Assembly: GCA_044892525.1 (NCBI GenBank) | Contig: CM097885.1 | Location: forward strand, 70,742,001-70,806,000 | Reading direction: 5' to 3' | Length of the DNA: 64,000 nucleotides | Origin: Schmidtea polychroa | Taxonomy: Eukaryota | Shown: positions 6,333-57,479 of the stretch, one piece after another | How the letters are laid out: every line of letters begins with the position of its first letter | Numbering within the stretch: position 1 is the stretch's first letter | The notes under the pieces: model-generated | The model's input: only the letters and a program-made list of their open reading frames with translations | Database searches by the model: none | Told to the model about the DNA's origin: nothing | Translations under genes and position numbers: made by a program

Positions 6333-6410
6333 AAAATTATCAGCGGGTAGATATTGAAATAAAACAAAATAGCGTTAGGAACTAGAGCCAGAGTAAAACT
6401 GAATAATCAT

Positions 6411-18984: not shown

Positions 18985-18994
18985 AGGGGGAAAA
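18985..18994 (+). promoter_or_regulatory. Polypurine tract of element 1
   Basis: AGGGGGAAAA followed by CA, directly before the 3' LTR. Confidence 0.85.
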
Positions 18995-18996
18995 CA

Positions 18997-22696: not shown

Positions 22697-24993
22697 CACT
22701 AGATTTACGGACGAAATTACATACCTATTTTTACTGAAACCCGTCATATTGACGGCTACATTAAAATGCTTGTATTGAGCAAAATTTATTGAAAAAAATA
22801 TATATTTTAAAAATCTGATTTAATATAAAAAACAAAGATGAATATATTCATAATTTATTTCATTTAATGGCAAAATATTTTTTTTTCAACATATTATTCA
22901 ACATATTTTTTGCATACATATATCATTTTTTGTGTGCATTTACCACAAACATATTTATTACATTTAATACAAATATTATTGGTTTTGTTTTTTTTTACAA
23001 TATCCGATTTGGCAGGATTTGCGTATATTAGACTTATTTTCTATTGACGATAATGGGTTAGAACCTTTTTGGTATTCACTTCGAATATTCCGCTGCAAGT
23101 TCATCAGCCAATTGAAAAAGAAATTTTTTTCTGGATATATTTTCCCCCGTGGTTTCCTTGTATAGCACCCAAGCATTAATTCCCGACAAATTTAAAATGT
23201 TGTAGAAGACTTGTAGAGGCCATCTACGAGACCCTGATTTTACGCTATATTTCCGTGCCATTTGGTCGACTACATCAACACCAAATTTGGTTTGGTTATA
23301 AAAAGAAACAGTTTCTGGCAAACGTTTATTATTATCTTCAATTTTTACAAATTTATGTTATGAGCTGAGTAGTAAAACCTTTTTTTGTGGTTTACTTTTA
23401 TATATCGTTAGAACACATGACCCAGATTTGTAAAGAAGTGTAGAGAAGCGTTTCATGTTATCTTTCTTATTTTTAGCTGATTTTGGCAATTCCCTTTTGT
23501 TAGCTCGTATAGTTCCAACCAAAGTTGTTCTTTTTGCAAATAATTTATTTGCAAGTGGAATGCTCGTAAAAAAATTATCTGTCGAAATATTTCTTCCACG
23601 TCCTAAATACGGTTCAGCAAGTTTGAGCACTATGAACTCGCTCAAAGGTACTGATCCCCGAGTTTCGTCTTTACCTAAGTACGGGAAGCCATTTAGCAGA
23701 TATTTACTATTTACGTCTGCCGCCAACCAAAATTTTGTACCAAATTTATCTGGTTTATTTGGCATATATTGCGTAAATCGACATCTAGCCTTTGTGGGGA
23801 ACAATTGTTCATCAATGGTAATGTTTTCGCCAGGCTTATAACAGGCTTGACAATTTTCAATAAATTTGTTCCATGTATAGGAAATTAACGCAAACTTATC
23901 AGTTTGTAAACGTTGACTTCGTTCAAATCGTTTGTCAAACCGTATGAATCGGAGAATTTCCATAAATTTGTCTCTGCTCATTGTCTGTGTGAAAAAACTC
24001 GGTCCCCATATCTTTGACCGTAAATATGAAGCCTTCAAAGATTTTGCTTCGTAAGCTCCACGTGCATATAAAATTGCTATGAAAGCGCGTAACTACGATT
24101 TTGATATTTTCCACTCTTTTTTCAAAATTCGAAATGCCTCTAATTCAATGCAAATTTTTATATGTTCCAACATACTTTCATCAATTATCAGTTCAAATGC
24201 GCTAGGTACATTACCTAGCATAATATTCCTTTTGGCGTAAGCCGTTGGTCCTCCTACATCTGTAAATTTATTGAAAAATTGTGGTCTGCCACTACTTACA
24301 CCTTTTTTTAGGGTTTTGCATATGGTCCCATCAACAGATATTTCATTTTCTATGTCTCGTTTTTGTGATTCACCAGGAATTTCAACTTCGCTGTCCGTTT
24401 CTGAAAGAATTCGCAATCTTTTTTTGCCGCGACATACATTAGAAATACTTTCTTCTTCAGTGTCTAAGAGTTCGATTTCATCAGAATCAGAATACTGTAC
24501 TTCATTCTCGCTTTCACATAGCTCAACCTCATTTCTATCAAAATTAGAATCGGAGCAGTTCTCATTTATACCGGTAATTTTTTGTAGTAATTCAGCAATC
24601 CTACGAGATTTCCTCATAATAGCCCTATTCAATTTAGGAAAACTAGATAATATATACATATTTATTATGAAAATATTTTGAACTTACCCTGAAAAATTAA
24701 ATCTATGCTCACAAAATTATTTATGAATGAATCCGTAATATTTGTTGTACAAATAAAAAATGTCGATTTATATTGAAATTAGTTAACCCGTCAAATTGAC
24801 GGATTTTCGGGAAAATAGGTATACCACATACCGATATTTGAAATTAAGATAGCCAACGAAAAATAAAATAGAATATATATTCATATCAATAAACCAATAA
24901 TTTACAACATAATAAAAAAAATCTTTCATTTTATTAATTTAATAGATATGAAATTTGAAACCCGTCAAATTGACGGGTTTCGTAAATCTAGTG
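22697..24993 (-). mobile_element. piggyBac DNA transposon (2,297 bp), defective
   Basis: TTAA TSD at 22693-22696 and 24994-24997; perfect 13-bp TIR CACTAGATTTACG; three subterminal CCCGTCA-N-TTGACGG palindromes (~22737, ~24786, ~24957). Confidence 0.95.
22894..24617 (-). pseudogene. piggyBac (PGBD4-like) transposase pseudogene
   Basis: Catalytic motifs ITIDEQLF, STDNFF and GVDVVDQM; C-terminal Cys-rich domain RKSCQIGYC...CIKCNKYVCGKC. In-frame stops at 24093 and 23358, frameshifts near 23085 and 22990. Confidence 0.92.
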
Positions 24994-32235: not shown

Positions 32236-35200
32236 CTTTTTTCCATTTCAATTAATCTAATTTCATTAATATTATTGTTTATATTTGTTTAAATTTATTA
32301 TTATAAGTATATAAAAATTATTTTAATTTTATTACATGACTTTGACCTCAACAATACTATATATCTTGGGATATTTGGCTTGGTTTATACTCCTCACTAC
32401 TCTAATAAAGTATAACTATTACTTAAGATATAAAAAAATTAAATATTACACAAGAGGTCAAATATTACATAGTGTGTGATAAAACCGATTATTATACAAT
32501 CTGCGTATCGTTACATCATAATGTATATAATTACGTACCTTTATAGAATGATGTAACATCGTACCCACCCAGGTAACCATACAAATATTGCGTAAAACTG
32601 TATATCGTGGGATATTCGGCTTGGTTTATATCCTCACTTGTCATTCTTAGGAATGTTAATGATGTCATTGAAAATACCGATGATTCATATAGTCAATATA
32701 ATTCAAAATATAATTTAACAAAATTTTGTTCAAATTAAAACATTCTTGTTATAATTTACGCTCTTGTCAGGATTTATTAAATGTAAATGTAGAAAAATAA
32801 TAATAAATAAATAAAATTAATTGAATAATTATTAAAAAATTCATTAAAAATTCTGTTTATAATTAAATTCTTGTTAAGATATATTAAATGTAAATGTAAA
32901 AAAAATAAATAAATAAAATTAATTGAATAATTAATTAAAAATTAATTACAAAAGTAAAAATAAATTAGTAATAATAATAGTTCATGGAATAAATAAAAAA
33001 TAAATAAAAATAATAATAATTTTAATAATAATTAAAATTTATTAGGACATAAACCAAAAAAATTAATTATTTGTGACGTTAATGAATAGGTATTTTTATA
33101 ATCAATTTGATTAAATTCTTGCATATAGATTTATTTTTTCTCGTTTAAATTCTGAGAATATAAATATTTTTACATTATTTTCTTCACAACATCTAACCTA
33201 AAATTTCTTGTCTTTCAGAATTAATTTTGAAATCGAAATTCCCATGTATGAGGTGATTTTTCAAACTTCCTAAATAATCGCCAGAATCTTCATTTTCCAC
33301 TTTGCTGTTTCGATAATTTTTTGAAATTCGTTTTTGCATTTTCAAAATATCCTTCCCGGATTATCAGCTATTTTAAAATTACCAAATAATTTTCACCTTT
33401 CTTTAAATAATCTCATTGATATTTTTTATCTTTTTTCTCCTGCTCCATCTGATTATTTTTTCTTTATAATGTGAGTAAGTGATTTGGATCTTTTCCATAG
33501 CAGATCTCAATAGAAAATGGGTCAGTGATAAAATTGTTGGGGGAGTGACAGATTGAAAGGTCTCCTGACCACACGAATTATAGACCTCCAAGCCACCCGG
33601 GATTGAATTTTACTACACAAGATCTACCAATAATAATTTTAATAACTTGTAGTGCCCCTATAAATTTTAATTAAAATCAATGGAAATTTTTAATCATTAA
33701 CTTATAATAAAATAAAGACCGTTGAGACATAGGAAAATCTAAGAAAAATGAAAGCATAATTTTCTAAATGAAAAAATCTTTCTACATACAATTATTGATT
33801 GCCATTTTACTCTACGAATATAGTCTAACAAATCAATTTAATAGAGTTCTTACATAACATTTCTTGAATGCATAATTTGGATGAAAAAATGGACATACGC
33901 TAACGCATTGTATTTCCAGAACAAATAAGATTAGAGTAAAACGTGAGAGTCAAAATCTTTTGTTCAATACAACATCTTATATACCTAAGTTTTCGTGAAT
34001 CATACTTTGAATTTTTTGTTTTTCCTACTGTTTGTTATCGTGTTAGATGAACATAACAAAATCAATGCTAGTTTTTGACCTAACTATAGAAACAAACAGA
34101 ATTATCTGTTTATCAAATTTTAATGTTACATGGAACAAAAAATTATATAGAAATAGGAAAGTGGTATAATTTAATAAAAACAAAGATTTTATTATTTGGA
34201 AAAGTGACAGATTAAAATTAAGAATTCAATGCCAAATTTTTTAAAATGAGTTGAGAAAATAAAGAGAAAACAGAAATTATGAAGACGAATTTTTTAATGG
34301 TTACTATGAATAACAAAATGTTTATTTACCTTTATAATTTACAAATTTGAAAAAAACTTTTAACGATAAAACATAACCTAAAACCATTATTTAATAAATA
34401 TTCACCATTTTGTCCAAAATGGATAAATAAAATAAAAATATGTGGTTTATAATATAAAACATATAATTTAGGTAAAAAATTATTAACACTTACTTTAAAT
34501 TGCAAAAAAATCAAAGTAAAATCAAATTCATAAATTGAATAAAAATAACAGATAACAAATTATGAGTCATCTATAGATTTGTACATTAATCTGTATTATA
34601 GATATTTTTATTCCGTGTAAACGGATGTAAAGTCATCTAGAGTTGATTTCGATTTGAGGGTTTACCAATTTGTTCTAGCGCATCAGAAAAATATACATTC
34701 AACAGCATTAAGTCGATTTAAAATCCACGATAATACATCTAGTAAACTAGTAAAGACCACAACACCTCAATCATAAATTAAAGTATGTAATTAAAAAATT
34801 GTAGCGATAGATAATTTACTACAATATAGTTAAGAATGAAAAATAAAGTAATTTAAAATCTTGCTTACTGAAATCAATACCTTGTCCAATTTCAGTGTGG
34901 TAGGGTCAGGTATGGTGGTCGCGGGTTGTCACTTGAATTTTTCCACCGGAATTCAATTTTTGGTCATTCTGGGGTGAATGCACTGAATTCCTTGTGGTTT
35001 CTCATGATTTCGGTCTTTATTGTGTTGGGCTAGAACTGATTTCTAGACCCAAAGTTGGAAATGGGACGAAATGTGTCAGTACACAACACGCATACCCAGC
35101 ATTAAGTTTACTTAAATAAAAATATATAAAACACCAAGTAAACAATGATAATAGAGAGATAATATACCCAAAAATAAAACATCTGAATTAAAAATAAAAT

Positions 35201-38200
35201 AAAACACGAGCAAGAAGTATTACACGAAAACTTACTCAAATATAACCGAAAGACATAAAACAACAAAAAACAAATTCGAATAAAGGCGATTAGTAAAAAT
35301 TAAAAAAGAAAATTAAAGAAAATCTTCATAAAATCTTACGTAAAGAAAATTATATCGATATTTTGAATAAAAATCCAGAACAATTCATAAAAATGGCGAA
35401 ATCCATCATGACGGCCAAACGACCCAATAAAATTTATAAAAAATAAATATTTTAGTTTAAAAAATAAATATTTTAGAAAAGAAATCATAAAAAACAATTT
35501 AAAAATAAGAAATAGATTGAATTTAGCATGGACTGTTCTGGAAATGCTGAAATCCATCATGGAGGCAAATTTAATAAAAAATAATTCGAAAATAAAATTT
35601 CAAAAATAAAAACAAAAATTCTTACTGAAAAATCGCCATCAAAATCGATAAAAATTAAAAATCGAATGTTCGAGAATTAAAATAATCTGAATTTGTTTTA
35701 CTGCATCAATGCACGCATGTATACTTACACGTCAAACAGAGACTATATAAACTAACACATTTCGTCACTTTTTAAGCAAGGAAAAAAAAATGAAAATGAA
35801 TATTTTTACTCTTATGCCAAATTTTTGGTTTTGATTTCTCTGAGATTGTAGGTAAGGACGATTTCATTGTGAATTATAAATTATTATTATTGAAAGCTTG
35901 TTTTCATTATTTCTTTTTAACTATAGAAATGTAGGTTTGAGTGAGATCGTCGGTTATCATTGATTTTGAAGCGAGATCCCAGCCAACCCTGCACCTATGC
36001 ACTTTATCATCGATGATTAAACAGCCCACAATGATTGCAGGCCACTGCCTGGCACGCACTTATCAATATTATTTGTTTTTTTTTGTTCAGGTCATTCGGA
36101 GGTCGCACCACTTCATGGTTCTGCCATGGAGTTAAGTCGATGAAATCCTCCGTCTGACTCTACCTATTTATTATAGGTCAGCCGTAAAGGGTTGACTTAC
36201 CACACAACAGTAAGGTTTGTCGTAGTGGTCACAGTGGGGCCGCGAAAGCAAACACTCTTCCCGACTTTCAATGCATGAATAATTTACATAGTTAAAAACT
36301 ACATCCAAAATCATCACAATACAATACACTAAGGTTATTAAACAGAGTAGATCTCAGACCTAAATTAATCACAACTCTGCAATTCACAATTAATGTAGAC
36401 GGTTAAATATCATCAAGAACCAAGTCTACCTATACGTTTGTCGAATCTAAATTTATAAATGTCTTAAATAAATTTTCTAGTAATAGTGTAAAGTAAAGAT
36501 TGTTTAAAAATGATTGATTTAGTAGTGATAGTATTCATAAAGGTGTTCGACATGCGCATCAGCAAGACTTTTAAATTGAATAGACTCTAAACTAACTATA
36601 AAAATTCAAATCGTAAACCCATAACAGTATAAATTATCCTCTCAATTTCATAAAAATGTGAATTATACTTATAGATTTAATTTCTTCAAAATATAAATTA
36701 TGATTAGTTATAAAGGTATAAATTATAAATTTAATTTCTTGAAATTATAAATTACAAATTTGTATTGACGATAAAAATTATAAATTATAACTCTAAGTTA
36801 ATTATAAAAGTATAAATTATAATCTTAACTTCATAAAAATATAAATTATAAAATTATATTAGCTTTAAAATATAAACTATAAATTTAACTTAACTTCATA
36901 AAATATAAATTATAAACTCAAAAGTATAAATTATAAAATTATATTAGCTTTAAAACATAAACTATAAATTTAATTTCATAAAAATATAAATTATAAACTT
37001 ATATTAGCTGAAAGACTATAAATTATAATCTTAATTTGGTCATAAAAGTATAAAATATAAACTACGTTAGCGATAAAAATATAATCTATAATAAGTTGTA
37101 AATATTTTATAAATACCCCCCCCCCCGAGTTACGTAATGGTCGAAACAAATGTCCAGATTCATAATCTAACTTATATATGTATATTTGAAACTTATAAAA
37201 GTATAACTTACCTTTTTCATGAGTACCCCCCTCAAACTATACATTAGTCGAGAACAATATATATAGCAATAAATTAACTTATATACGTGCAGTTATCAAA
37301 CTTAATAATTCCTCAGATCACCTAACCATTAATTATTGTCTAAATACATTAATACATTATCTTTACTATATAAATTTGGAAAATTTTGATAAATGACCCC
37401 CCTTAATTCATATAACCATCAACCACTAATTGATACACTCAGTTAGACTATTTAATATATATACTTAACTTGGATTACCTTTAAAATCATAGTTGAAAAT
37501 TTTTCATCAAAGACCCCCCAATAAACCATATCGTCATCAACTACTACCTAAATATACATTTAACTTATATTATATTTTAAAATATAAATTGAAAATTTTC
37601 ATAAATGACCCCCCTTCAACTCATGTAGCCATTAACTATTCCTTAGGTATACTGAATTGTATCATCTTCGTAGAGTTAAATTATATTTCAAACCAAAAAA
37701 ATAATTCCATAAATTTTCGTAAATGATCCCCCCCATATGTAGTAATCTTNNNNNNNNNNNNNNNNNNNNNNNNNNNNNNNNNNNNNNNNNNNNNNNNNNN
37801 NNNNNNNNNNNNNNNNNNNNNNNNNNNNNNNNNNNNNNNNNNNNNNNNNNNNNNNNNNNNNNNNNNNNNNNNNNNNNNNNNNNNNNNNNNNNNNNNNACT
37901 CTTACTATTATTATTACTATTATCATTATTATTATTATATTATTAAAATAATTATCTTTATTTCATAAAAATAAAATTATAAAACAAATTATTGATTTTG
38001 GGATTCCCCTATCTCTAAATTTAGTTTCAATGGCCCTATCTTCCAATAAAATTACGGAAAATCACTAAAATCTATTTTTAGTAACACCCCCCCCCCCTGA
38101 AAACGACATCAATATTATTAATTTAAATTATATCCATATATGTACATATGTGTATATGTATGTGTATATATAAGTGGATGTGTGTATGTACATACCGATT

Positions 38201-38636
38201 TATAAAACAACCTTATAACAATACGATAACCTTCCCCCTCAAGACCCCTGTTATGTGATGGTCACAACCCCTTTAAGGTGATGGAACGAGGATAGAGTAG
38301 TTTACTGAAGTAATTTAGTAGAATCATTTATTAATTTATTAAAATTATTGGATTTATTTTTAACTAGATCAAAAGAAGAAAAACAAAGACTAAGTTTATT
38401 GATTTCGATCATCAAATTTATTCACATAATTGTTTCTTTGAATCATATTCATACCAAAAAGTCCTTCGAGCTCAGTTGATGGACCATCCCGATGAAATAC
38501 ATTTCCTGGGGTTGGAAAATGGAAAACTTATATTAAAATATCTTTCAGAATTTCTTTTAGATTCCCACAATTAAATAATTCCAAATTATTTCTCACAAAT
38601 ATATTCGATCAAAAAGAATTTTAATATTTTATTTAA

Positions 38637-39305
38637 TTACAACATCCTGAATTTATTTCTTTCCTTGGCTGCTTTAAGATCATAAATGGGCATTTTTCAT
38701 TTATTAATCGTATAAAATCAGTTATTCTGTACAACCTTTACATTCTTCACCCCAGCTTTCTAATATTTTTTGAGATCTTTAACGCGAGCTTTGTTTAGAT
38801 TAATACCAGTAAGATCAATAGGTTTGTCTGAAAAATAGTTGAATTAATATTTAAAATCTTAACTGAACATACCATATTTTAATTCACAAATTTGTGAATC
38901 AATTGCTTTTAGTTTTTCAGACTTTTTCAGCGGGCATAACCCAACTCAAAGGCTGAGACAAATGTTTTACAATATATGCAGTAGATGTTACCAATCCTCC
39001 AATATAATAACACTAAAAATAAATTACAATTTTATAGTAATCAGTTATAATACCTTACCAGACTTTATTCTTTTCCTTTACTTGTTTTGCTCATCTTTTT
39101 GAATTTATTTTCAATATTTTCGATATTTGTACTTTCATCTCCATCTAGACTATCTTTCAGGCGTCTCACAAACTTAACACAAACTGAACAATTTTTAAAT
39201 ATAATAAAAATAAGTGCCAAATACCTTCGCAATTATTTTCATTAACTGTAGCTGACATTACATAGTAAACAATGATTAGAAAAGAAAAACTGATAAAATT
39301 TTCAT
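38637..39305 (-). pseudogene. MANF: MANF/ARMET-family gene copy with three introns, disrupted, inside the solo LTR
   Basis: Signal peptide, NNCE^VCVKFVRRL, ^CYYIGG, DSQICELKY^DKPIDL and KARVKDLKKILESWGEECKGCTE (CXXC). GT-AG introns at 39184-39224, 39013-39058 and 38828-38872. Several frameshifts and one stop. Confidence 0.9.
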
Positions 39306-40109
39306 TGCAAAATATTACTAATATAAAAAAAAATGGTTTGTTAAAAAAAAAAATAATTAGTTAAAACAAGTTTAAAATATTTCAAACTGACGTATAAGTT
39401 TTGTTTAAAATGTAAGTAACGAGTATTGTAAAATTAATTTAATATTATTATAAATTTTGAATTAAAATTTTCTTAAAATTCTAGAAAAAAAAAATCTATT
39501 ATTAACAGAAAACAAATTTTTAAAAATAAATAAAGTTTGAGTCAATTTGAATTTTCTAGAAGTATCTCTTAAAATTATATAGGGAATTGTTTTGTAGCAG
39601 TTATTGATGTATTTTGAATTTATTTAACTTGAATTAAAAATATAATATTAACAAAAATGTATTGTGAGATTTTGATTGTTGATCTAACCATCTCTCTATA
39701 ACTACCCGGGCTCAACAAAGGGGAGTGTCATTGTACGTCAACTAGGACAGTCATAGTCACCGCGAAATACGCTTAGTCAAATAATACGCGGTCATAAACA
39801 ATCATGGTTCTTGTAAAGTTATTATATTTTGTTGTTGTGGTTGGTGAAATTTCTGACCCTTATTTGTATGTTCACTAATATATAAGTTGTTTTTTTTTAT
39901 TGTGTTCTAATTAAATTCATTATCCTCAAAAATTTCTTAAGGTATGTTTAATAAACTATGGCTATGTTTCACTTAGTTTATATTCAAACATTTTAGATGT
40001 GGTATTGTATGAACAGGTTTTAATAGATTAATGTATGATTCCTGATGACTTATGATCGCTTGAGGATAGAAAGTTTGTATAGGCATAGTTGAGAAAGTAA
40101 TTATAATAA

Positions 40110-40339
40110 GGGACCTGCGTAAATCGGACATATATCTTCTAACGATAGTCCGTGAACCCAGTAGAGTGCTCGACAATTACAGTGCAAGTAGTGCGCTCAC
40201 TTTTTGCGAGCACTCACCCTCTTGATACAGTACCAACGTTGATCATTCAACGGGTATCAAGCGGTAAACAATGTTGTATCTTGGGTTAAGCTGGTAACAG
40301 CACTAAAGAGCAAAATATTTGATCATCAGTAACCCACCA
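40110..40339 (+). other. Conserved structured LTR-end (U5-like) module, copy at the solo-LTR end
   Basis: Homologous to 40750-40980, 41842-42062, 48104-48340 and 62217-62453; stems are retained with compensatory changes. Confidence 0.75.
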
Positions 40340-40749
40340 ATTGTTAGAGGGACCTTATATGCGTTTAGATCTAAACTGAGGGTATCATGTATTAGGCCTC
40401 AAATTGCGACTAACCACCTCGTAAAATATATATTTTGTTATCAATTTAGAAAATATCCAGTCAACTCTATTCAGACGAAGAGGAACATCAATCGGGAGGA
40501 GAAGAATCTCAATCGGAACTAATCACTCGACTCCGGACCCGATGGATTTGGTATCACATCCACGATTGGATGAGAAAAGGTCTGGAGGATCTTGGACCAG
40601 TCATCCGAACCGGGCTAGAACCTGGAGCCCTGGCATGGGTCAAGCAAGAGCCCACAACAACCTTCTGGAAGAAGCCAGCTTATATGCCGAGATGGCGTTT
40701 GATGAGATGGTGAGAAAGTTTATAGGATTTGGGAAAACAAATAAATTGA

Positions 40750-43074: not shown

Positions 43075-43869
43075 TAGCCTATTTCGGTCTATGGGCAATA
43101 TTTTATTCATACTTGGAAAAACTCCTTTCAATACATGAGGAATATGCTGTAATACTAAGGATGAAAGATTATAATTTTTAAAAAAGTTATTGATTTTATC
43201 CTTTTCAATATTTAAAAAAATATTTTAAAAATATTCAATATTTTAAAATATAATAGGTATTAAAATATGACTCGCAGACAGTAAATATACTTCGATCTTA
43301 GCAGGAATTTCACCATTCCTAAATTATAAAGCCTTTTTAAAGCTAATTAGAGGTCAGTAATATTACTAATGAGATACGATTGTAATCCTGGCAACTCTTT
43401 ATAATTTCTCGATACATGGTTGTAGCGATAGCCATCATGTGACGGCATGCCGGGAAAGTCTGAAATTAACGTCCATAAATACACAATTCTTTGATCATTG
43501 TGAAATACATGAAAAGCTAAGAATGAATTTTCAAAACTATGTTCTCAATATCAATATCTAACTCCTGTGAATTGTGTAAACAATTATCTGTGCTTAGCAA
43601 TTTGCTTTCACTACATTTTTGTTATCTGCTTCCAAGTTCATGTATAACGATTAATGAATTCCGAAGTTCGCTATTCCATTTTTACATGATCACAAAATTA
43701 TAAGACTTTTTTTTCGTATTTTCTTATTGTATTCGCAAATACTATTTCTGGGGAATTCTGAGAATGATATAACTGGAATTACTGCATTTCCCCGCATATA
43801 CCTTGTGAATTTCGACCAAACCTGTGAAAAAAGAATTGATATGATGTAGGATATTTACAGTCAGTGCCG
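43075..43869 (-). pseudogene. hAT transposase remnant, unit X (target of element 2; completed by 62454-62480)
   Basis: Near-identical to 62481-63612 except for a ~300-bp deletion; decayed hAT motifs (KANC..H, WLSLQPCIEK). Confidence 0.65.
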
Positions 43870-46800
43870 TGTTGGGCTAGAACTGATTTCTGAACCCAAA
43901 GTTAGGAATGGGACGAAATGTGTCAGTACACAACACGCATACCCAGCATTAAGTTTACTTAAATAAAAATGTATAAAACACCAAGTAAACAATGATAATA
44001 GAGAGATAATATACCCAAAAATAAAACATCTGAATTAAAAATAAAATAAAACACGAGCAAGAAGTATTACACGAAAACTTACTCAAATATAACCGAAAGA
44101 CATAAAACAACAAAAAAACAAATTCAAATAAAGGCGATTAGTAAAAATTAAAAAAAAAATTAAAGAAAATCTTCATAAAATCTTACGTAAAGAAAATTAT
44201 ATCGATATTTTGAATAAAAATCCAGAACAATTCATAAAAATGGCGAAATCCATCATGACCGCCAAACAACCCAATAAAATTTATAAAAAATAAATATCTT
44301 AGTTTAAAAAAGAAAAAGTTTAGAAAAGAAATCATAAAAAACAATTTAAAAATAAGAAATAGATTAAATTTAGCATGGAATGTTCTGAAAATGCTGAAAT
44401 CCATCATGGAGGCAAATTTAATAAAAAATAATTCAAAAACAAAATTCCATAAATAAAAACAAAAATTCTTACTGAAAAATCGCCATCAAAATCGATAAAA
44501 ATTAAAAATCGAATGTTCGAGAATTAAAATAATCTGAATTTGTTTTACTGCATCAATGCACGCATGTATACTTACACGTCAAACAGAGGCTATATAAACT
44601 AACACATTTCGTCACTTTTTAAGGGAAAAAAATGCAAATGAATATTTTTACTCTTATGCCAAATTTTTGGTTTTGATTTTTCTGAGATTGTAGGTAAGGA
44701 CGATTTCATTGTGAATTATAAATTATTATTATTGAAACTTTGTTTTCATTATTTTTTTTAACTATAGAAATGTAGGTTTGAGTGAGATCGTCGGTTATCA
44801 TTGATTTTGAAGCGAGATCCCAGCCAACCCTGCACCTATGCACTTTATCATCGATGAGTAAACAGCCCACAATGATTGCAGGCCACTGCCTGGCACGCAC
44901 TTATCAATATTATTGGTTTTTCTTGTTCAGGTCATTCGGAGGTCACACCACTTCATGGTTCTGCCATGGAGTTAAGTCGATGAAATCCTTCGTCTGACTC
45001 TACCTATTTATTATAGGTCAGCCGTAAAGGGTTGACTTACCACACAACAGTAAAGTTTGTCGTAGTGGTCACAGTGGGGCCGCGAAAGCAAACACTCTTC
45101 CCGACTTTCAATGCATGAATAATTTACATAGTTAAAATCTACATCCAAAATCATCACAATACAATACACTAAGGTTAATAAACAGAGTAGATCTCAGACC
45201 TAAATTAATCACAACTCTACAATTCACAATTAATGTAGACGGTTAAATATCATCAACAACCAACTCTACATATACGTTTATCGAATCTAGATTTATAAAT
45301 GTCTTAAATAAATTTTCTAGTAATAGTGTAAAGTAAAGATTTTTTAAAAATGATTGATTTAGTAGTGATAGTATTCATAAAGGTGTTCGACATGCGTATC
45401 AGCAAGACTTGGATTTTAAATTGAATAGACTCCAAACTAACTATAAAAATACAAATCGTAAACCCATAAAAGTATAAATTATAAAATTATATTAGCTTTA
45501 AAATATAAACTATAAATTTAACTTAACTTCATAAAATATAAATTATAAACTTAAAAGTATAAATTATAAAATTATATTAGCTTTAGAAATATAAACTATA
45601 AATTTAACTTCATAAAAATATAAATTATAAACTTATATTAGCTGAAAGACTATAAATTATAATCTTAATTTGGTCATAAAAGTATAAAATATAAACTACG
45701 TTAGCGATAAAAATATAATCTATACTAAGTTGTAAATATTTTATAAATACCCCCCCCCCGAGTTACGTAATCGTCGAAACAAATGTTCAAATTCATAATC
45801 TAACTTATATATGTATATTTGAAACTTATAAAAGTATAACTTACCTTTTTCATAAGTACCCCCCTCAAACTATACATTATTCGAGAACAATATATATAGC
45901 AATAAATTAACTTATATATGTGCAGTTATCAAACTTAATAATTCCTCAGGTCACCTAACCATTAATTGTTGTCTAAATACATTAATACCTTACCTTTACG
46001 ATATAAATTTAGAAAATTTCAATAAATGACCCCCCCTTAATTCATATAACCATTAACCACTACCTGATACACTAATTTAGACTATTTAATATATATATAC
46101 TTAACTTAGATTACCTTTAAAATTATAGTTGAAAAATTTTCATCAAAGACCCCCATAAACCATATAGTCATCCCCTACCAACTAAATATACTAAATTAGC
46201 TTATTTTAATACATATTTAACTTATATTATATTTTAAAATGTAAATTGTAAATTTTTATGAATGACCCCCCTCAAAATCATATAGTCATCAACTACCACC
46301 TAAATATACTAAATTAGCTTATCTTAATATATATTTAACTTATATTATATTTAAAACTATAAATTGTACATTTTCATAAATGACCCCTCCCCCCATAGGT
46401 ATCTTAAAAAAAATATAAATTTACATTTATTATTATTNNNNNNNNNNNNNNNNNNNNNNNNNNNNNNNNNNNNNNNNNNNNNNNNNNNNNNNNNNNNNNN
46501 NNNNNNNNNNNNNNNNNNNNNNNNNNNNNNNNNNNNNNNNNNNNNNNNNNNNNNNNNNNNNNNNNNNNNNNNNNNNNNNNNNNNNNNNNNNNNNNNNNNN
46601 NNNNNNNNNNNNACATTATCACTCTTATTATTATTATTATTACTATTATCATTATTATTATTATTATATTATTAAAATAATTATCTTTATTTCATGGAAA
46701 TAAAATTATAAAACAAATTATTGATTTTGGGATTCCCCTATCTCTAAATTTAGTTTCAATGACCCTATCTTCCAATAAAATTTTAGAAAACCACTAAAAT

Positions 46801-48340
46801 CTATTTTTAGTAACAGCCCCCCCCCAGAAAACGACGACACAATTAATAATTTAAATTAAATAAATATATAAATATGTATGTATGTGTATGTATATATAGA
46901 TTTATAAAATAACCTTATAAAAATATAACCACCGTTCCCCCTAAAGACCGCAAGTTGTATAATAATAAGAATAAAGGTTATTGCTAGTCGTCCTATAATC
47001 CTAAAAATTTTTATAATTTTGCATGTGTTATTATTATTACCCTAGTGCTATTATTATTACTACGATTATTATTATCATTATTATTATTATTACTATTATT
47101 ATTATTACTGCTATCAATGTTATTATTATTATTATAAATAGCATAAAAAAGAGAAAAAAAAATAACTAAACAAAATAGGAACTTTTATTGTGCAAATTGT
47201 TCGTTTTGAGAGCCGATAAAATTCCAATAATTCACCTTTTCCTGAAAAGTTTGCTAGGTAGTTTATACCCGTGTGCTCCGACTAGCGCTTCTATTTCAGG
47301 TTTAAATCGTTTTCAGTTGTAAACTTTCCGTTTAAATATCTAAAAATAAGCATTTTAATAAAATAAATTACCCTCCAATTCGAAAAATGGTGATTAAACC
47401 ACTCATGACGAGTACAACTGAGGGATAAGCAAGTAACACGAGTGGCTAGGCTCGTCACTAATACTTATCACCCCAGTGTACCCGAATTTAGTGGTAATAT
47501 CCGATTCATTGGTTTAATCCTGAAAAATAAAAAAAAATATATATATATATATATTAAATTTCAAATTACCACCCAGTGGTAAACAAGATTTTAGATTAAA
47601 ATAGTTAACTTAAACAAAGTTAATTAATAATGTAATTTGAAAAGATCAACGTTTTTTGTATGTTTTTGAAGCAATAGTGAAGACATGAAATTGAATGTTT
47701 TCTCTAAATTTCTAGGGGATAATGCCTCATCAGGGTCGATATTTCGTTAAAAATTAAATTAATTAACAGCCAAATTAGGCATTTAAAAACTAATTGACGA
47801 AAACGAGGATCGAGAATGCAGTAAATTTAAATAGAGTATGTTGGATGTTTGAACGTGATTAAAACCGAATCGAATACACCCAGATAATCCGGCAAGCTCA
47901 CGGACGGGAATAGATGGGCGTATACAGGTGTATGAAGAGATGGATGGGGAGGCGAATACCTATGTGTGTACACGCGTACAGGGATATGTATGAAATGGAG
48001 TGTGAGTAACGACAACGGGAAATCGATGAATAAAGAAAACGTGGTTTTGTATTTTAAAGGAAATAAATATAAATGGAACGACACTCAATCGGTAGGAATA
48101 GATGGGGACCTGAATAAGAAATCGGACATAAGCCTTCTATCGGCAGTCCGTGAACCCCAATGGGTGCTAGACAATTATAGTATGCTAAGCATGCTCACTT
48201 TTTGCTAGTACTCAAACCCTTGATACAGTACCAACGTTGATTGCTCAAAGGGTATTAAGTGGTCAGCTGTCAATTGTATTCTGGGTTACGCTGGAAACAG
48301 CACGAGTAGGTGGAAACTTTGGATTACCTGTAACCCACCA
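43870..48340 (+). repeat. 5' LTR of element 2 (4,471 bp including a 175-N gap)
   Basis: About 99% similar to 57990-62453 by eye (roughly 30 differences). Confidence 0.95.
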
Positions 48341-48348
48341 TACAAATT

Positions 48349-48366
48349 TGGGGGCTCAGCCGGGAT
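48349..48366 (+). promoter_or_regulatory. Primer-binding site complementary to tRNA-Pro
   Basis: TGGGGGCTCAGCCGGGAT lies 8 nt after the LTR and matches 16/18 nt of the MLV tRNA-Pro PBS TGGGGGCTCGTCCGGGAT. Confidence 0.85.
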
Positions 48367-49774
48367 CCTTAAACTTTCTTGGTAAAGGAACCTGTAAATA
48401 GACGGGAATACTTAGTGGTTTTATGATCAGGAAATAAAATGCTGTATGGAAGAGTAAGAAAGATTGTTTTCCCAAATAAATAGATATGATGTGTGAATAT
48501 TCGTGTATGATGAAAATGAATGTTGAATGTTGTACATGATGAATAAAAAGTTTTAAATTATGTAAATATAGAAAATCGATGAAACCAGGTATGAGAATAA
48601 TGTAAAAGCGTTCCGTGATGATGGGGTAGAATGTTGATGGGTAAGAAATGAAATAAAAATAAAAAATAAATAAATAAATAAAAGTTGTAAAAATAAATAA
48701 CAAATAAATTGTAAATAAAAGGAAATAATGAAAAATTCAAAAATAGGGAAAATGGGGGAGGTAATATAACGGTATATAGAAAAGGGGGATAACGCATAAA
48801 ACAGTGCATTGTGAAATAGAAATAAATAGACGATGCAATTAATTATAAAACCGGGGGAAGATGTAAAACTACGTTAAAGATTAAAGGGGTATATTGAGTA
48901 TTTGATAAAATGACTAAAATTATGGACAAGCTGGGATCAAAAGGGTTACGTGGACTAAGATAATAAACTAGAGGGAACGGATAAGAATGCACGGAACATC
49001 ATTTAATAGACTGGGAGCCTAAACTAACAGGGTAAAACAGCTATTGAACTTACTTAATTTGAATAAGGAAATAAATGGGTAGAGGTAAGCTAATTAAAGG
49101 GGAATAATAACACTTAATAAAATGCTGAATTAATAAAGTATAACTTGATGGAATTAACCGGCTACATTATAAAGAAACTTGAAAATTCTTAAATTTAACT
49201 AACAACTCACTACAAAGATTGAATTGAAACGCAGAGCAGTTGGCAAACATCCGAGAAGGACTGATCTTAAAACCAAGACCAGTAGATGATGAATTGTGTA
49301 TAATGACGAGAACTGCTACACCAAATGTGGAATTAACTACTCAAAGAGTATATCAGGTTCAGAATTTACGTTTGGATAAGGCCAAATTTAACACCAAATG
49401 GCAAGAATTAAAGATAAAAATTGAAACGGTTGAAGATGCAATAAGGGAGGCGATCGAGAATGAAGTCAAATGTTGAGTGTGCAGAAGCAACGAGGTAAAA
49501 ATAATGATTGTTCCTTGCGGACATCTATGTTATTTCCAAGATTGTGCATTGAAACTGAAACGATTGTAATGTATGTGACGCAAACGTGAGAGAAAGAGTA
49601 GTAGTGTACCTCCCTGAGGGAGATGTAGAAAAATTAAAGATGATGAAATGAATTGCAGCCGAGTGTGAGTTAGTAAAATGTTAGTAAAACTAATTCCATA
49701 ATAGCAACCGAAAGGTATAAAACATATGTTGAACATAGACATATGAAATACACAAGGGACCGAAGACCGCGAAT

Positions 49775-50410
49775 ACGGCGTAATGGTGTAAAAGCCCAGG
49801 CGTCTAGGAATCGTAAAAGACTTCAAAGATTAAAATATTATGAAACCGGCCGGAAGCCGATGCCGACGCGGAGGTCTAATAAACCGAAGCGTTGATGGTT
49901 AATAGTGAATTATATGGCGTAATGGTGTAAAAACCCAAGCGTCTAGGAGTCGTAAAAGACTTCGGAGATTAAAAGTATAATAAAACCGGCCGGAAGCCGA
50001 TGCCGACGCGGAGGTCTAATAAACCGAAGCGTTGATGGTTAATAGTGAATTATATGGCGTAATGGTGTAAAACCCCAAGCGTCTAGAAGTCGTAAAAGAC
50101 TTCGGAGATTAAAAGTATAATAAAACCGGCCGGAAGCCGATGCCGACGCGGAGGTCTAATAAACCGAAGCGTTGATGGTTGATAGTGAATTATATGGCGT
50201 AATGGTGTTAAAGCCCAGGCATCTAGGAGTCGTAAAAGACTTCATGGGATTAAAATGAGTTGATTAAACCGGCCAGAGAGCCGATGGTAATTGAATGAAA
50301 ATAAATGATTTAAATGAAATAAGAGAAGTGATTAAACCGGCCAGGGAGCCGATAGTAAATAAATGTAGACGTAGAGGTCGCGCGAACCGAAGCGTCGATG
50401 ATTAACTCTG
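49775..50410 (+). repeat. ~140-bp GC-rich tandem repeat (about 4 copies plus a degenerate tail) in the 5' leader of element 2
   Basis: ggcgtaatggtgt recurs at 49777, 49916, 50056 and 50196; units contain the CCGGCCGG palindrome. Confidence 0.9.
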
Positions 50411-51137
50411 AACGAAATAAAAGAGATAAACTATTAAGATGAAATTGATTAAATTGACGTAGATTAAGTGCGACAAAGAGGTAATGATTAAAGGAAAATT
50501 ATGATAGAGCGCCGGCGCAAGAGAAACTGAAACCAAATTTTTGAATGGGGAAAAGCGAAGAGGAGATATTAATTAAGTTACTGATGAGTTTTATATGTAT
50601 ATGACTAATGATATATATTTTTTAATTATATAATTGATGTTGTGATTATATGATAGATAATTGATACGACGATATAGATAATTCATACGAGTTATAGATA
50701 ATTAAAAATGGACTTAAATTCAAAAGGGGGTGAGTAGCAAAAAGTAAAAGCGTACCATGAATTAGAAAAGGAACAGCGAGAGAAATAATGAGTAAAGAGT
50801 AGTATAAAATAAAGAAAATAGGGAAATAAATGAAGGGTAGAATAAAATGAATAAAATATTATGATATGTACTAGGAGTGTTAATTATTTTAGAATAAAGC
50901 AAACCATTCAGAAGGAAGTCAATACAGCCCAAGAATTCAAGCGAAATAAAGAGAAATCAAAAATTCAAAAGAAAACAAATAAGGAATCAAGAGAATCAAA
51001 CGAGGATAGAAGAAAGGTAAACAAAGTCAATTTAAATAACAAGAGGAAAATTAAAGCGTTGGCCAACGAAACACAGTGAAATTCAAAAGAGATTATTAAA
51101 GCGGGACAAAATTGATAATATAGCCATTCGAACGAGA

Positions 51138-52301
51138 TTGTATAGCAAAGGAGGCTCTAGTTTATTAGGAAACGCAGAGAGACAAAGAGCCAAGAGAAAC
51201 AGAAGAATCAATAAGAAACCAGCGTCAGTGAAAACATTATTTGAATCAGACAGCTTAACCAACGAAAGTGAAAACAGCGACGATATTAAAAGAAACGAAT
51301 TATATCCGGTAACTGATATCAAACCAACAGACAAGAAAGAGAGTAGCTCAGGCATAACAAGTTTGTGTCGAGATATAATGTTAGACGGAAACCAAGTGAA
51401 TAACCCGAATGGGTCAGAGTCGACATACACACCAGAGATAAACCATGTCAACGTCAATGTTGGAGAATTTAGAATAAGATTTCGAGGAGAACCATTCGAT
51501 GGGAATATTAATGAACTAGAAACGTTTATAAAAGCATTCGAGGTATATATTACGATATGTCACTGGCCAGACATAGTCGTACGAGAGCGAATACCATTAT
51601 ATTTAAGAAGAAATGCACAAGATGTATATTTAGAGGCAAAGTGTGATGCAACAAAACTAAAAACATGGAAATCAATAAAGCATTTTTTAATAAAAACATT
51701 CGGTAGCAAAAGGGAAGGAAATCGCAAAATGTTGGATTTTCTGCATCGAAAGCAGAAATACAATGAGTCAAACGCACTATATGCATGTGAATTGAGACGA
51801 CTGGCAAAAGAGGCATTCGATTCAAATCAAACAGTTCCGGAAGACAAGATAATAGCCGTATTCGTAGAGGGTATGAAAAGAAAGGACATACGAGCAACAG
51901 TGGGGTGCCGAGCACCAGATACGCTCGAGGAAACATTAAAAATCGCTAATAAATGCGAAAACTACTTGACTCCAGTACAAGTAGCAGCAATGGCAGCAGT
52001 ACCAATAGCTACAACACCAACATGGACTACCGAAATTAATCCAACCAACAATGCAAATCTAGCAATGAATCAATTTATCTCAGAATCGCAACAGTTGTTC
52101 AAGGCGCCAAAAACGACAAATCCGGATAACAGAGGTAATATTCAATTTTACACTAATAATTTCAGGAACAACGAGAACAATAATCGGAAGTGTAACATAT
52201 GTCAACGACTAGGACATTGGAGCAACGAGTGTTATAAGACAACGATGTGCCAAAATTACGGTAAAAGGGGTCACACAGAAATATATGCCGAGGACCAATG
52301 A
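51138..52301 (+). pseudogene. gag: Gag of element 2 (capsid-like domain + CCHC knuckles); single-A deletion near 52280 separates it from ORF 52298
   Basis: FDGNINELETFIKAFE...W...IPLYLRRNAQDVY...RKQKYNESNALYACELRRLAKEAF; CNICQRLGHWSNEC. Restoring one A gives CQNYGKRGHTENIC in frame with CYSCKELGHVAREC. Confidence 0.88.
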
Positions 52302-55300
52302 TGTCGATGAGAGGAGGAAGGACTAGAACCTGCTACAGTTGCAAGGAACTTGGACATGTGGCGAGAGAATGCGCGATGAGGACAAAACATAATCAACCAA
52401 GAGCAAACGATCCAAGTCAAATTATACAAATCAACATCATGCAGAAAATTGAACAGTTGAAAAAGATGATCCAACGGATACCAGAGGATATCCGGAAACG
52501 ACCAACAAGAGAACAACAAGACCAGCAACGAATCGAAGGGCAGAGACCACTAAACGAAGAAGCCAGAGAAATTCAAAGAAGATGGAAAAAGCGAGAAACC
52601 AACCCCGGAAGAATAAATATGGTGAGATTAACGATCAAAGAGGAACCGCACACTGTGGAGCAGTGTATTAACAACAAAGGGAGTGACATGGCAATAATCA
52701 ATGAGACGAAAGTGATAAAAGAAGATGAGACAGATCAATTGACGGAGCAATTTACAGAACTGAGTAACGAGGATAAAATAAAAATAATACAAGAGTTCAC
52801 CAAAGAGGAAAAAGAAAATAGACGAAAAAGAGATGAAACAGGGGACGAACCAAAAAGCAACGAGATCGTTACAAAGAATCGAATTCAAAGGGTATTACTA
52901 CAAAAAATTGAAGATAGAATTAGAAGAGAAGAACCAAAATTAACGGATAAGCAAGTAAAAGAAAAAGTAAAAGACAACTGGTTCAGGAAAAATGAGTGGT
53001 CCGTAAAGAAAGAACCAAGTAACAGAGCCAATATAAACATGCTGAGACAAATACCGAATGATCAGACGGACCAGGAAGACGAAAAAAGTGCGGTGAGTAG
53101 CCTGAGAAGTGAATTATGTCAATCGAGTGATGAAAATAATGAACAAGGAAAACCTCAAAATAACGAAGAGGGTGAGAGCGACGATATGGAATTACTGATA
53201 GAAAATGGCGATGAGGAAATATCTGAAGAAATTTCCATCGGGGTATCGGAAAGAGAACGAAATGAGAGCTATATTAACGAACCAACATACAGAAAATGTA
53301 TAAAACTGATAACTCAAGCATACCAGTGGGAAGGAGGTATATTAACGGTAACATGGAAAGATTTGGCGACGAAATATAAAGAAAAATTGAAAGAAGTTGA
53401 TCCAGATCAATACCAAGTAAGTATTCAACACCTTGAAACTCAGATGCAGATTATTGAATTAAAAGTAACAAATATCGATGAACTGTATAATTGGGTACAG
53501 GAAAAGATGGGAACAAGTCATAAGAATAAACACCTATACGATAATGGTTACAAAGTTAAAATGAGCATACATCTAGTAGATATGATGAGATGGCCAAACG
53601 AAGTTAATATCTTAATCTTAAAGAAAAACAGAGACAGCGAATCAGTAACGGAAATACTGAGGAAAATCCAACAGATATTCAACAATGAAGTGGAACCAGA
53701 AATAGAAAAGACTGAACAAAAGATAATGAAGGAAAATCAAATAATCGTAGTAAAACAAGCAATCGATCAAGCGAAGAAATATATTAACAGATTGAGGGAA
53801 AGATGGCCGCAGCTAATGAAACAGTTTGTCAAAGACGTACGGGATACTGAGATTATGGGATTTGAATATAAACGAGCAACGGAGTTGATATCAAAATATG
53901 GTAAATACGAGAGAATCAGATGTGAACAAGAATTACCATGGCTATCCAACAGAAAAGTGACAATAGTAAAAGAATCACTGAAGAATAGTCATTTAAATAA
54001 ACACGAAGAAATGATCAAAATATCACATGTCGAAGATGACATTTTTGGAAAAGGCCGGAGTGGAAAAAATGACAAAGACCATAACGACAAAAATGAGGAA
54101 GACGACGGGAACCTTGAAAGGAACAACGGAAATGGAAACTCAGGCGAACGAGATAATGAAGAAGACGAGGAGTCAGAAGATGACGTCGAAGACTTGAAGG
54201 ATACTAAGGACAACTCAGATCAAAGCGAAGACAACCAACGTAATGAAACAGAGAACGACATACAAAAGTTCCCACTACATAACATAGTAATGCGGAAGAA
54301 TCTAAACCAGCCACTCCTGCTACAAAGTATCCTAATAATACTAACGTCACTTTGCCTAACAGAAACGAAAAATACGCGAATTACGAGAGAAAATCTGAAA
54401 GAAGTCGAACTATTCATGATAAAAGTCAGCGACAACGACGGAAACGCGGTCGGGATATGTATCCAATTGATGGAAGGAACCGGAATAAGTTGTGATTTTA
54501 GAACGATAACAAAAGGGAGGATTTTCAATAGTCAAAAAGGAGACCTTGAATTATGTGGAGACTACAACATTTGCGAAGACATAACAGCAGAAGAAAAAGA
54601 ATTGGAAAGAGCTAACGAAACCGGAGTACATGTCGCAATTAAAGCTACAATGGAGGGTATCGAAATAATAGATAAAGGAAATTTGCCAACAACGCAAATA
54701 TGTTTTAGAGATGACGAAGACATATGTATAACGGTGGACATGGAACGAGATCGCGAATTTTTTTGGACAAACGTAAAACCAAACACCAACATTGTGGTAT
54801 GCGCAGGTACCCAGGAAATAGTGGTATGTAAAGCAGTTAAAACCGCGCAAATAAAAAGCCGGCCAAAAAGTATGGCTAGTAAACGATATCAACCAAGGAT
54901 CAAACCAGCAATTAAGAAACCCCAGAAACAATCCAGTACGAGAATGATAAGAGGACAGCACCAAATCAAGACAAACGCAACAGTAATATGGATCAAAGAT
55001 GAGAGACGAGAAGTACTAGTAAATGTCGAATTCAACAAGAAAAGAGAAGAAGTAATCATGGTCAGAAACCAAGGTGAAGAACCAATAATAAGAGTATGTG
55101 TACTAAACAGGACAGGAATAGTCGACTGCATAGAAACACTACTTGACAAAGGTGCAGAAGTTAAAATGACAATAGGAGAAAGAAAGGGACGATACCTCAT
55201 ATGTGTTCTTAAAAACGGAAGCGATTTAAGTTCATGCCAAGCAATAACCAGACAACGACCACGGATGATAAACATACCATTGGCAACCAGAAAACCAAAA

Positions 55301-55788
55301 GAAGTGGAAAAGCCAAAAAGAAACGAACATCTAACGGCAGAAGAAACGAAACAGTTATACCAGATGCTCAAGAAAAATAAAACACAGGGGGCAACTACAA
55401 CAGAAACTAAAATGATGATAACGACAGGAAAATTCAACAACAAGACACTGATAACCGTTAAAATGGTGTGGATTGCTAGCGCAATAATGAGTGCAGTGAT
55501 AACATCACTAATAATCCAATGGATAAGAACCTCCAAAATATGTAAACAAAAACCTAAAGATGGCCACAAGTGGAGAATGTCGAATATGGTATGCCCACAG
55601 AAAACCCGAATCCAGAAGAGTACGAAGCGATTAAAGATCCAAGGTCAAGCAGACTATGGATGCAAGAATTACTCAGAATACAAACCTTAGACGATTGGGT
55701 AAACGAATTTGACATATACCGGTCAACGGATGAAAGATATGGGGGAATGCGCACATTGCATTCAGGTCCCCTGGCAACAATGGTATAA
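52298..55788 (+). CDS. Gag C-terminal extension: knuckle, charged/coiled-coil region, internal signal-like peptide, three 4-Cys FN3-like repeats, TM, cytoplasmic tail (true tail probably in frame 55570-55788)
   Basis: LLLQSILIILTSLCLT (54314-54361); Cys repeats at 54458-54574, 54701-54829 and 55097-55237; TM MVWIASAIMSAVITSLIIQWI (55463-55525). Confidence 0.7.
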
Positions 55789-56512
55789 GAAAGTGATGAG
55801 TCGATGTAAATAGTGTGTATATAAACGTGAGGGTAAAAGTAGTTTTGTAGATTTGTAATATGTTCAAAAAAAATGGGTATGATAACTACGTATTATAAAT
55901 AAGAAATGAATCAGAGAAGCGAGGATCAAGTATATCAAACGAGGATACCATATGTTGTTGAATTGGGAAATTAACCACTAGTAAATATTAATCAGACATA
56001 AATAGTAGAAATTGATACAATTACAACGATTACAAAGTTAGTCAGCAGGATCAATGTGAAGAACACAATGTGAATTAATGACAAATGACAAACCATACCC
56101 AAGAATATCGGTTACGTAATTAGAATGTGTTAATGGACAGCATCAATAGAAACTCGATATATATAACAAGAATAAAAGAGCAACAACAAATAGTCACACA
56201 ATTAGAATACAATAACAAACAGTTGATAAGCCAAATAAAATGGTAGGCAGGAGAAATCAGGAGATTACACGAAAACCGTCAGCATGATGATATCACGAGT
56301 TAAGTTGAGTGGATAACCGGCCTACCAGGAACTGGGGAACCGGACGCAACGGGAGAGACATAAAAGAAGGGGAAAGTAGCCCTGTAAACAAACAAAATTA
56401 TAGCCAAAGTAGAAGCTCCGAGATTAAACGCTATCGTGGCAGAATGCCGAGAGAAAGTGGAAAAAAGTGGAGGAACAAAACTATTAACTATGAGCTGATA
56501 AGAAAATATTAG

Positions 56513-57214
56513 GTCAAATCAGATGAATTCGAGGAGAGACTATTGTGTGCGGACAAAGATTATTAATAAGAGCACGTCAGACCCTATGAGGATGTAGATT
56601 ATGACATGGAGGTACTACACGACTCGTAACAAGAAAAGCAGAAGTTAAAGAGAAATCCACAGCAAGAATCAGCCACATCCCAGATGACAATAATAATAAA
56701 ACTCTTAGAAGAAATAAACCAGCGAATAATGATGTCTGTCAACGAATGTCCGAGCAACTATGAAGCAAAGACGCTCGAAGAAATAAAGGAAAGGGTAAAT
56801 AACGCAGTCAAAGAAAAGCCAATTACTCAAGATGAAATAATAAAAACATTGAGAGAGATATAGATGGAAATAATAACAACTATTGACAAAATCCCGATGA
56901 ACCATGAGACAATGACCAAAACTTTAGAAGGAATAAAGAGGAGAATATCAACTACCTTTAACGAAGACTTCGCATACTAAAATGTCCTAATAAAGATGCT
57001 CACGGAAATCTGGAAAGGAGTAATAACGACAGTCAACAAAACCCTACACACTAAATCAAATAACCTCGAAGAAGAATTCAAATCGACGGATACAATCCAA
57101 CTAATGAAAACAGTGAGCATGTTGCGAGAGATAAAAAAGGAAGTGACAATCAAAACAAGGTCAGCAGAGAAAAAAAAATTTTTTTTGAATGAAAAGAAAA
57201 CCCCGAATCCATAA
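56513..57214 (+). pseudogene. Decayed helical/amphipathic coding region of element 2
   Basis: One frame reads as ~230 codons of repetitive amphipathic helix with about five in-frame stops, ending in ORF 56996-57214. Confidence 0.45.
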
Positions 57215-57479
57215 CAGTACTGATCCTGTTGACAGCGAATCTCATGATAAATAACAATACTGAGCTTGATAGCCCTTAAACCCACTCAAATCCATGGAAG
57301 CACAAAAACCTCAAGTTGAAAGAACAATTCCGAAGCATTCGCTTTCTAATAGAAGAACCAATACCCAGAGACTACATCTATCAAATCTATCAAATCTATC
57401 TTCTACAACCTTCAAATTTAGAGCCGTCATCGAGATGAGATCCCGAACAACCGAGTGTTTAAATCCTGATATAAACCGA

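Follow-up and report, generated by a model that had tools for sequence, protein, structure and literature searches.

Exon-confined A-to-G changes likely record RNA editing in a dead antisense MANF copy carried by the LTRs of a gag-only planarian element

In the published accounts cited here, each ingredient of the locus that we describe has a precedent: gene capture by LTR elements, antisense LTR units, and A-to-G hyper-editing in avian retroviruses. The Burro/GYPSM1 elements of planarians are giant and gypsy-like (PMC6431247), and their architecture recurs in ~34-kb relatives of the family studied here, referred to below as B relatives. The family in our window differs from Burro as described there: it is 21-22 kb long and gag-only, and its cargo is non-coding, antisense and placed in the LTR rather than being a domain of the polyprotein. 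A host gene inside the LTR is not among the Burro features given in that account. In LTR-mediated retroposition (Tan et al. 2016, PMC5131818), host sequence likewise replaces element sequence, and the chimera stays mobile non-autonomously; the short junction similarity described there has a possible counterpart at one MANF junction. However, the retrocopies reported there are mRNA-derived and intronless and replace internal ORFs, whereas the MANF piece described here keeps its introns and upstream DNA, is antisense and sits in both LTRs.

Transduced genes in LTR elements are usually in sense orientation, according to the survey in PMC7264820. The same source describes antisense units in Grande, RIRE2, Retand and micropia that could form dsRNA with the genomic RNA, much as proposed here, but these lie between pol and the 3' LTR and are given no known host source, whereas the donors of the MANF family are identified host genes. 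In maize, captured pieces can cross-talk with their donor genes through RNA (bioRxiv 10.1101/777037); the route reported for plants is siRNAs, while the trace on MANF is most readily read as editing. A parallel to that trace comes from RAV-1/ALV, where A-to-G hyper-edited clusters in an LTR or inverted repeat survived reverse transcription (PMC12925331, PMC8586724). As presented, those cases are isolated virus variants, one of them in an inverted repeat, whereas the partner of MANF appears to be a separate spliced RNA, and the exon borders are imprinted on germline copies, recurrently and with later re-amplification. For natural sense/antisense RNA pairs, editing is reported to make no general contribution (PMC5701935). 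A literature search covering few subscription papers, and neither supplements nor Repbase, turned up no antisense MANF capture and no element copies in which A>G is restricted to exons.

The window, 64,000 nucleotides of Schmidtea polychroa contig CM097885.1, contains a 5,317-bp solo LTR of a gag-only Burro-related family on the plus strand (35023-40339). It has TG...CCA ends, matches both LTRs of 21-22 kb elements and is identified as solo by this paired-LTR identity and by having no adjoining internal sequence. The target-site duplication (TSD) ATTG, which the original prediction had read from the LTR termini, is present at 35019-35022 and 40340-40343. A PBS-like stretch and the gag frames, in a second element of the window and in full-length relatives, set the LTR polarity as plus; the MANF exons are on the minus strand, so the copy is antisense, again as predicted. 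The captured piece is 1.35 kb long (38525-39879, minus strand), extending past the 38637-39305 first noted, and comprises the four exons with their three introns, the 3' flank and, beyond the ATG, 575 nt of upstream DNA, matching G000 C2:64447316-64446086 and C2:64440804-64440568 at 90-97%. The coding part of exon 1 (39225-39305), exon 2 (39059-39183), exon 3 (38873-39012) and exon 4 (38652-38827) are separated by GT-AG introns of 41 nt (39184-39224), 46 nt (39013-39058) and 45 nt (38828-38872), exactly the segments that transcript contigs skip. The upstream region (39306-39879) matches the host and would comprise a short 5' UTR and a likely promoter.

What had been called a complete four-exon copy is complete in its exon-intron structure; its coding frame is not. 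Although 96% like host MANF, the window copy is disabled by a stop at codon 66 in exon 2, frameshifts at codons 7, 100, 135, 150 and 160 (the first in exon 1, a 2-nt deletion in exon 3, and three 1-nt deletions in exon 4), and a 35-nt deletion at 38652 that takes the KADL-stop end.

Several other features share the window. Element 2, a gag-only relative on the plus strand (43870-62453, TSD GCCG), has an internal region ~93% like that of the MANF-bearing elements; its LTRs have the 5' part and the last 230 nt of the window LTR in common with it, but a different middle, and the MANF piece is missing from both, as first noted. A 618-bp direct repeat (43253-43870 and 62973-63590, 97.6%) flanks element 2 and is longer than its 4-bp TSD. 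At 5250-20058 lies a separate LTR element with 1,062-bp LTRs that are 99% alike; its coding part, broken by stops, includes gag, a protease with a fusion-glycoprotein region ahead of it, RT, RNase H and integrase. Pieces of TRAF-like genes, with RING, TRAF zinc finger and MATH, occupy 1596-3065 beside a hAT dimerisation fragment at 57-629, and a piggyBac-type transposase remnant (PF13843) is found on the minus strand at 23358-24683.

Element 2 and the long frames of the window family (three frames tested) matched only gag and zinc-knuckle profiles; an env-like region, RT-RH-IN, MATH/TRAF, BIR and ankyrin, which are present in B relatives, are not found in the window family frames tested. Two B elements of ~34 kb have the same LTR ends, and the one scanned for domains contains, over several frames, gag with a zinc knuckle, MATH, a protease preceded by a fusion-glycoprotein region, RT, RNase H and integrase, together with ankyrin, TRAF and BIR-RING. 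The gag region of element 2 is 75-78% like that of the B elements. At 21-22 kb, the MANF-bearing elements fall below the Burro criterion of >30 kb. We therefore describe the window family as apparently non-autonomous and Burro-related, a likeness judged by described architecture rather than by the sequences of Burro-1 to -4. Full Burro-type relatives probably mobilise it in trans.

The MANF-bearing LTR is abundant. A search of the animal's own genome with the segment gave 250 candidates, and all 40 that were scored are 99-100% identical; the intron-3 motif has 228 genome matches, one of them the host gene, with none for a control. In all six full-length elements that were fetched, both LTRs contain MANF, and the two LTRs of a pair are 99.4-99.9% alike. 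Matched and distinct TSDs flank four of the six; a fifth adjoins more element sequence, and the flanks of the sixth do not match. Thus, the expectation of many MANF-bearing LTR copies at distinct insertion sites was borne out, at more than 200 LTRs. For copy analyses, we aligned 167 of ~227 MANF copies and dropped none, in a non-random sample picked from hit lists that counts both LTRs of some elements. The codon-66 stop occurs in 164 of the 167; another copy has three frameshifts instead, and the remaining two lack the region. A stop common to nearly all copies argues for one capture that was disabled early, and the idea that the LTR disperses working MANF genes does not survive these counts. 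The copies nearest to the host differ from it by 8-13 of about 535 coding letters. One young amplified subfamily (41 fetched loci) has kept the MANF gene body, while the sequence from ~65 nt upstream of the ATG onward was replaced. Two copies first taken as separate insertions, L094 and L095, have identical flanks and were not counted as such. At another locus (L164, G000 C1:17.452-17.455 Mb), the 5' part of MANF is present as three tandem repeats ~540 nt apart.

The parent gene lies on another contig than the window, at G000 C2:64446510-64447178, and has an intact 178-aa frame. It is single-copy (its downstream flank has 1 match of 1 in its own genome). Its identity as MANF, proposed from the window copy, is confirmed by host exons that pass the Pfam cut-offs of both ARMET_N (saposin-like) and ARMET_C, by the KDEL-like end KADL, and by the match of exon 4 to solved MANF (E 1e-20). 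The host region is now split by a solo LTR upstream of MANF. Since the captured piece matches the host on both sides of this LTR, it was copied from the empty site, and the solo LTR postdates the capture or lies on another allele. Read-through from this LTR was considered as the source of the capture and rejected: the copy continues across its position and matches the empty site (TSD ATAT). The solo LTR itself (L070-L071, G000 C2:64440804-64446086) measures 5.3 kb and belongs to a related family, with a 5' part 86-90% like the B-family LTR; it sits ~420 nt upstream of the intact gene, in the same orientation.

MANF was not the first host gene in this part of the LTR. A sister LTR family (116 motif matches) has both flanks of the MANF LTR around a different middle of ~880 nt, and this middle is NDUFA7, also antisense (PF07347: 121 matches). 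In the window, leftovers of it lie on either side of the MANF piece, both on the minus strand: the NDUFA7 3' end at 38389-38519 (89% to the intron-bearing host locus L261/L246; PF07347) and a distal upstream part at 39883-39984 (81-83% to host L246/L261). The MANF piece replaced ~880 nt of this earlier capture in the same slot. The best candidate for the host NDUFA7 gene is L261: its frame is intact, its two introns measure 44 and 43 nt, the surrounding 10 kb contain no LTR end, and its downstream flank is a repeat; of two other loci considered, L252 sits in an LTR and L260 is a fragment. A TTAA-ended insertion upstream of the candidate gene (L261:475-868) is missing from the LTR-borne copies.

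How the MANF piece entered the slot is a near-even choice between two routes. We lean slightly towards a reverse-transcriptase template switch onto unspliced read-through RNA. Template switching is reported to replace element sequence and to leave short similarities at the junctions (PMC5131818); the similarity here is only 5 nt, at one junction. The close contender is a DNA-templated capture, in which the repair of a break in the LTR would have copied the MANF locus. The introns, ~500 nt beyond the likely start site and the 3' flank, none of which belong to mature MANF mRNA, speak for it, and the 7-nt duplication beside the 5-nt similarity and the 4 filler letters at the other junction would fit end-joining repair. 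Either way, the later steps would be unchanged.

MANF also survives in part among the B relatives. Thirteen LTRs of ~34-kb Burro-type elements (within L114-L121 and L134-L146) hold a MANF 3' remnant with intron 3 that adjoins the NDUFA7 upstream piece. These remnants are 68-82% like the host and 98-99% alike mutually, and they have three clear non-host letters in common with the other MANF copies. They likely go back to the same capture, on a branch that has evolved fast. Their most frequent change is A>G (17/85, with 1/21 in the intron). An ATG-like match that hinted at a whole decayed gene in this family was discarded, as 51 of 200 block shuffles scored as high.

The original prediction held that antisense orientation lets introns survive RNA-mediated transposition. 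For MANF this is borne out: introns 1, 2 and 3 are kept in 162/162, 165/165 and 166/166 testable copies, with no case of loss, and a search of G000 for the exon 3-4 junction, that junction only, found no form without intron 3 in genome DNA. On the element strand, antisense introns and poly(A) signals would not be read by standard splicing and processing, and would thus pass intact through each RNA cycle. But orientation is no lasting shield, as NDUFA7 in the same slot has lost both of its coding-region introns precisely, the first in 29 of 30 and the second in 21 of 22 testable copies (36 loci examined). The exception is a solo LTR, L267, that retains both introns and thereby marks the loss as secondary; most likely, NDUFA7 was captured with its introns and lost them later. 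This locus (L267/L298) lies at G000 C1:123.617-123.621 Mb and has the TSD TTGA. NDUFA7 LTR copies also keep 600-690 nt of host upstream DNA. In one short element, both LTRs (L252:1471-1851 and L253, G000 C2:19.04-19.05 Mb) hold an intronless, stop-free NDUFA7 frame of 127 aa preceded by host upstream DNA, possibly a working retrogene inside an LTR.

Transcript evidence comes from contigs of four runs guessed to be RNA (X1-X4), which represent at most three samples from two studies. No run catalogued as RNA was listed with the stretch, a blank that speaks neither way. Contigs of these runs skip all three MANF introns. The intron-2 joint occurs in its host form in all four runs, and in the form of the LTR copies in X1, X2 and X4, hence in both studies, with none of the LTR type in the X3 contigs. 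A contig of X4 is closer to the window copy (0/64 and 1/117 letters different) than to the host (2 and 8 at the same places). As the joint is spliced and of LTR type, and intron-less DNA copies are absent (for intron 3 from the genome, for intron 2 from 165 copies), the contigs, taken from probable RNA runs, show that transcription in the MANF direction, followed by splicing, takes place in some LTR copies. Contig cover over the captured upstream region falls to ~1 or 0 above 39335-39403, with the caveat that contig depth is no measure of expression. Transcription of the LTR copies in the MANF direction probably starts from the captured promoter.

The exons of the MANF copies bear a strand-specific mark. 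We scored A>G on the element strand, with one count per variant column, and compared introns with an mRNA footprint of the exons plus 45 nt of 5' UTR and 148 nt after the stop, both UTR bounds being set post hoc. In the first 64 copies, A>G had hit 55 of 144 A in coding exons and 3 of 63 in introns, a contrast that does not depend on the UTR bounds. With 167 copies, the footprint shows A>G at 126/244 A columns and the introns at 8/63 (P 1e-8), compared with 34/201 in the upstream region and 28/144 in the LTR 3' part; for T>C, the footprint count is 55/278. To the left of the capture, A>G (37/95) is matched by T>C, which is about as common (29/91). NDUFA7 copies show a weaker skew (81/158 vs 58/179 upstream, P 6e-4).

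The mark is concentrated in few copies, as 132 of the 167 carry at most one private A>G within the footprint. Of the private changes in the strongest case, L107, a copy without a matching TSD, 54 are A>G, none is T>C and 5 are of other types; across its edited span, 54/142 exon and UTR A are changed and 0/63 intron A (P 6e-11). L166 shows the same division (28/89 vs 0/42), L044 has 16 A>G changes, and L045, L183 and L243 have ~20 in common. Masking the editable columns places L107, L166, L044 and the L045 clade in different subfamilies, which makes at least four independent A>G events. The L045 clade is present at three insertion sites, so the edited form transposed again. A fifth clade at four sites (L075, L094/L095, L101, L228) has 6 A>G changes in common and 6-7 per copy, which is weak for a single copy (P 0.02-0.11), and L233 is not significant. 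In the exons 1-3 of L107 and L166, the last 55 nt are edited at 1/77 and the rest at 65/167, for a bound chosen post hoc and two events only; this gap would fit shielding by the exon junction complex, given the position of that complex on spliced RNA.

The letters around the changed A follow the rules of adenosine deaminases. By 5' neighbour, the edited fraction is 0.50 for U, 0.32 for A, 0.26 for C and 0.12 for G (5/42 after G vs 54/107 after U; P 1e-5 across the four classes). Among 3' neighbours G is highest, and ADAR prefers G at that position. ADAR is also reported to avoid a 5' G (PMC8586724), and a planarian has both ADAR1 and ADAR2 (PMC8797187). One-directional, confined to duplex-capable regions and depleted after 5' G, the clusters look like ADAR hyper-editing, and an ADAR origin of the exon-confined A>G is likely. 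The partner strand would have been a separate spliced RNA, because an inverted MANF copy inside the element, which could have supplied an internal duplex, is absent from all three full elements tested. For L166, a member of the subfamily without the upstream region, the partner likely came in trans. Exon restriction thus supports the suggestion that antisense RNA from the LTR pairs with MANF RNA.

At a probability of roughly 0.8, our reading is that a dead antisense MANF copy with intact introns has been carried in the LTRs of a gag-only element, and that its exon-confined A>G changes are ADAR edits which arose by pairing with spliced MANF RNA and were fixed by reverse transcription. After the 1.35-kb genomic-type piece had displaced the NDUFA7 segment, the copy was disabled early and amplified. 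Transcription and splicing in the MANF direction would offer LTR-derived RNA, next to host mRNA, as a possible partner. In a duplex of element RNA with either, exons and UTRs would pair and introns would loop out; ADAR would edit the element strand, and some edited RNAs would be packaged and integrated. Contact of this kind with spliced RNA may also have led to the precise intron loss of the NDUFA7 lineage: if reverse transcriptase moved onto spliced mRNA while making the plus strand, the polarity would be right for removing introns from an antisense copy.

Could the antisense genes have been kept for a function? Element RNA might lower the MANF and NDUFA7 message via dsRNA or piRNAs, and either the element or the host might profit. 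Pairing, to which the exon-restricted A>G points, is what this proposal needs; two highly conserved housekeeping genes occupy the same slot, both antisense, and three MANF-bearing subfamilies are young and amplified. We nevertheless consider it unlikely. The same internal region also amplifies in a form that lacks MANF, element 2, and SMEDWI-2 piRNAs of S. mediterranea are described as unlikely to target coding genes (PMC8532177). Per-site variation in the exons (0.31, 64 copies) is no lower than in the LTR 3' part (0.21), and replacement changes outnumber silent ones ~2-3:1 in most copies. Given the dead frame, the unreduced exon variation, the MANF-less element 2 and the amplification of a subfamily devoid of the upstream region, the best reading of the sequences is that the MANF segment is a dead passenger whose function is not supported.

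It is more doubtful still that selection acted on the promoter, with host upstream DNA driving the element and the gene body hitchhiking. Both captures do bring along ~575-690 nt of DNA from upstream of the ATG, which lies directly ahead of the conserved 3' end of the LTR, but the young amplified subfamily did the reverse, keeping the gene body and exchanging what lies upstream. Less credible again is an origin of the A>G clusters outside ADAR, whether from misincorporation by reverse transcriptase, from errors of assembly or from recombination with a diverged copy of MANF. A>G transitions are frequent in these copies as a whole, but the clustered changes leave out all three 41-46 nt introns within one edited span, run in one direction as in L107, follow ADAR neighbour rules, and occur alike in copies from separate insertion sites. 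That the window might be the ancestral MANF locus caught between two unrelated LTR fragments with a chance TSD match, the case named at the outset as fatal to the prediction, can be set aside, with more than 200 copies in the same LTR context and an intact single-copy gene elsewhere.

These results have practical sides. More than 200 near-identical MANF pseudo-copies, some of them spliced, will confound read mapping and RNAi of MANF in this animal. For any genome, strand-specific A>G changes that respect exon borders in element-borne gene copies provide a search recipe. For NDUFA7, one genome contains both intron states (29 copies lack introns, the host gene and L267 have them), so that the cDNA-recombination model of intron loss can be put to a direct test. 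As a wider and more tentative proposal, which we hold to be possible rather than probable, the LTR slot would serially capture housekeeping genes in antisense, leading to routine pairing with the spliced message, ADAR edits shaped by exons, UTRs and exon junction complexes, precise intron loss, and damping of MANF and NDUFA7 in trans. If so, one RNA contact would print the shape of an mRNA into the germline twice, as edits and as intron loss. The genomic MANF copies appear to keep a dated, heritable record of sense/antisense pairing, made in the cells that transmit new insertions, and with it a likely route by which RNA editing turns into germline mutation.
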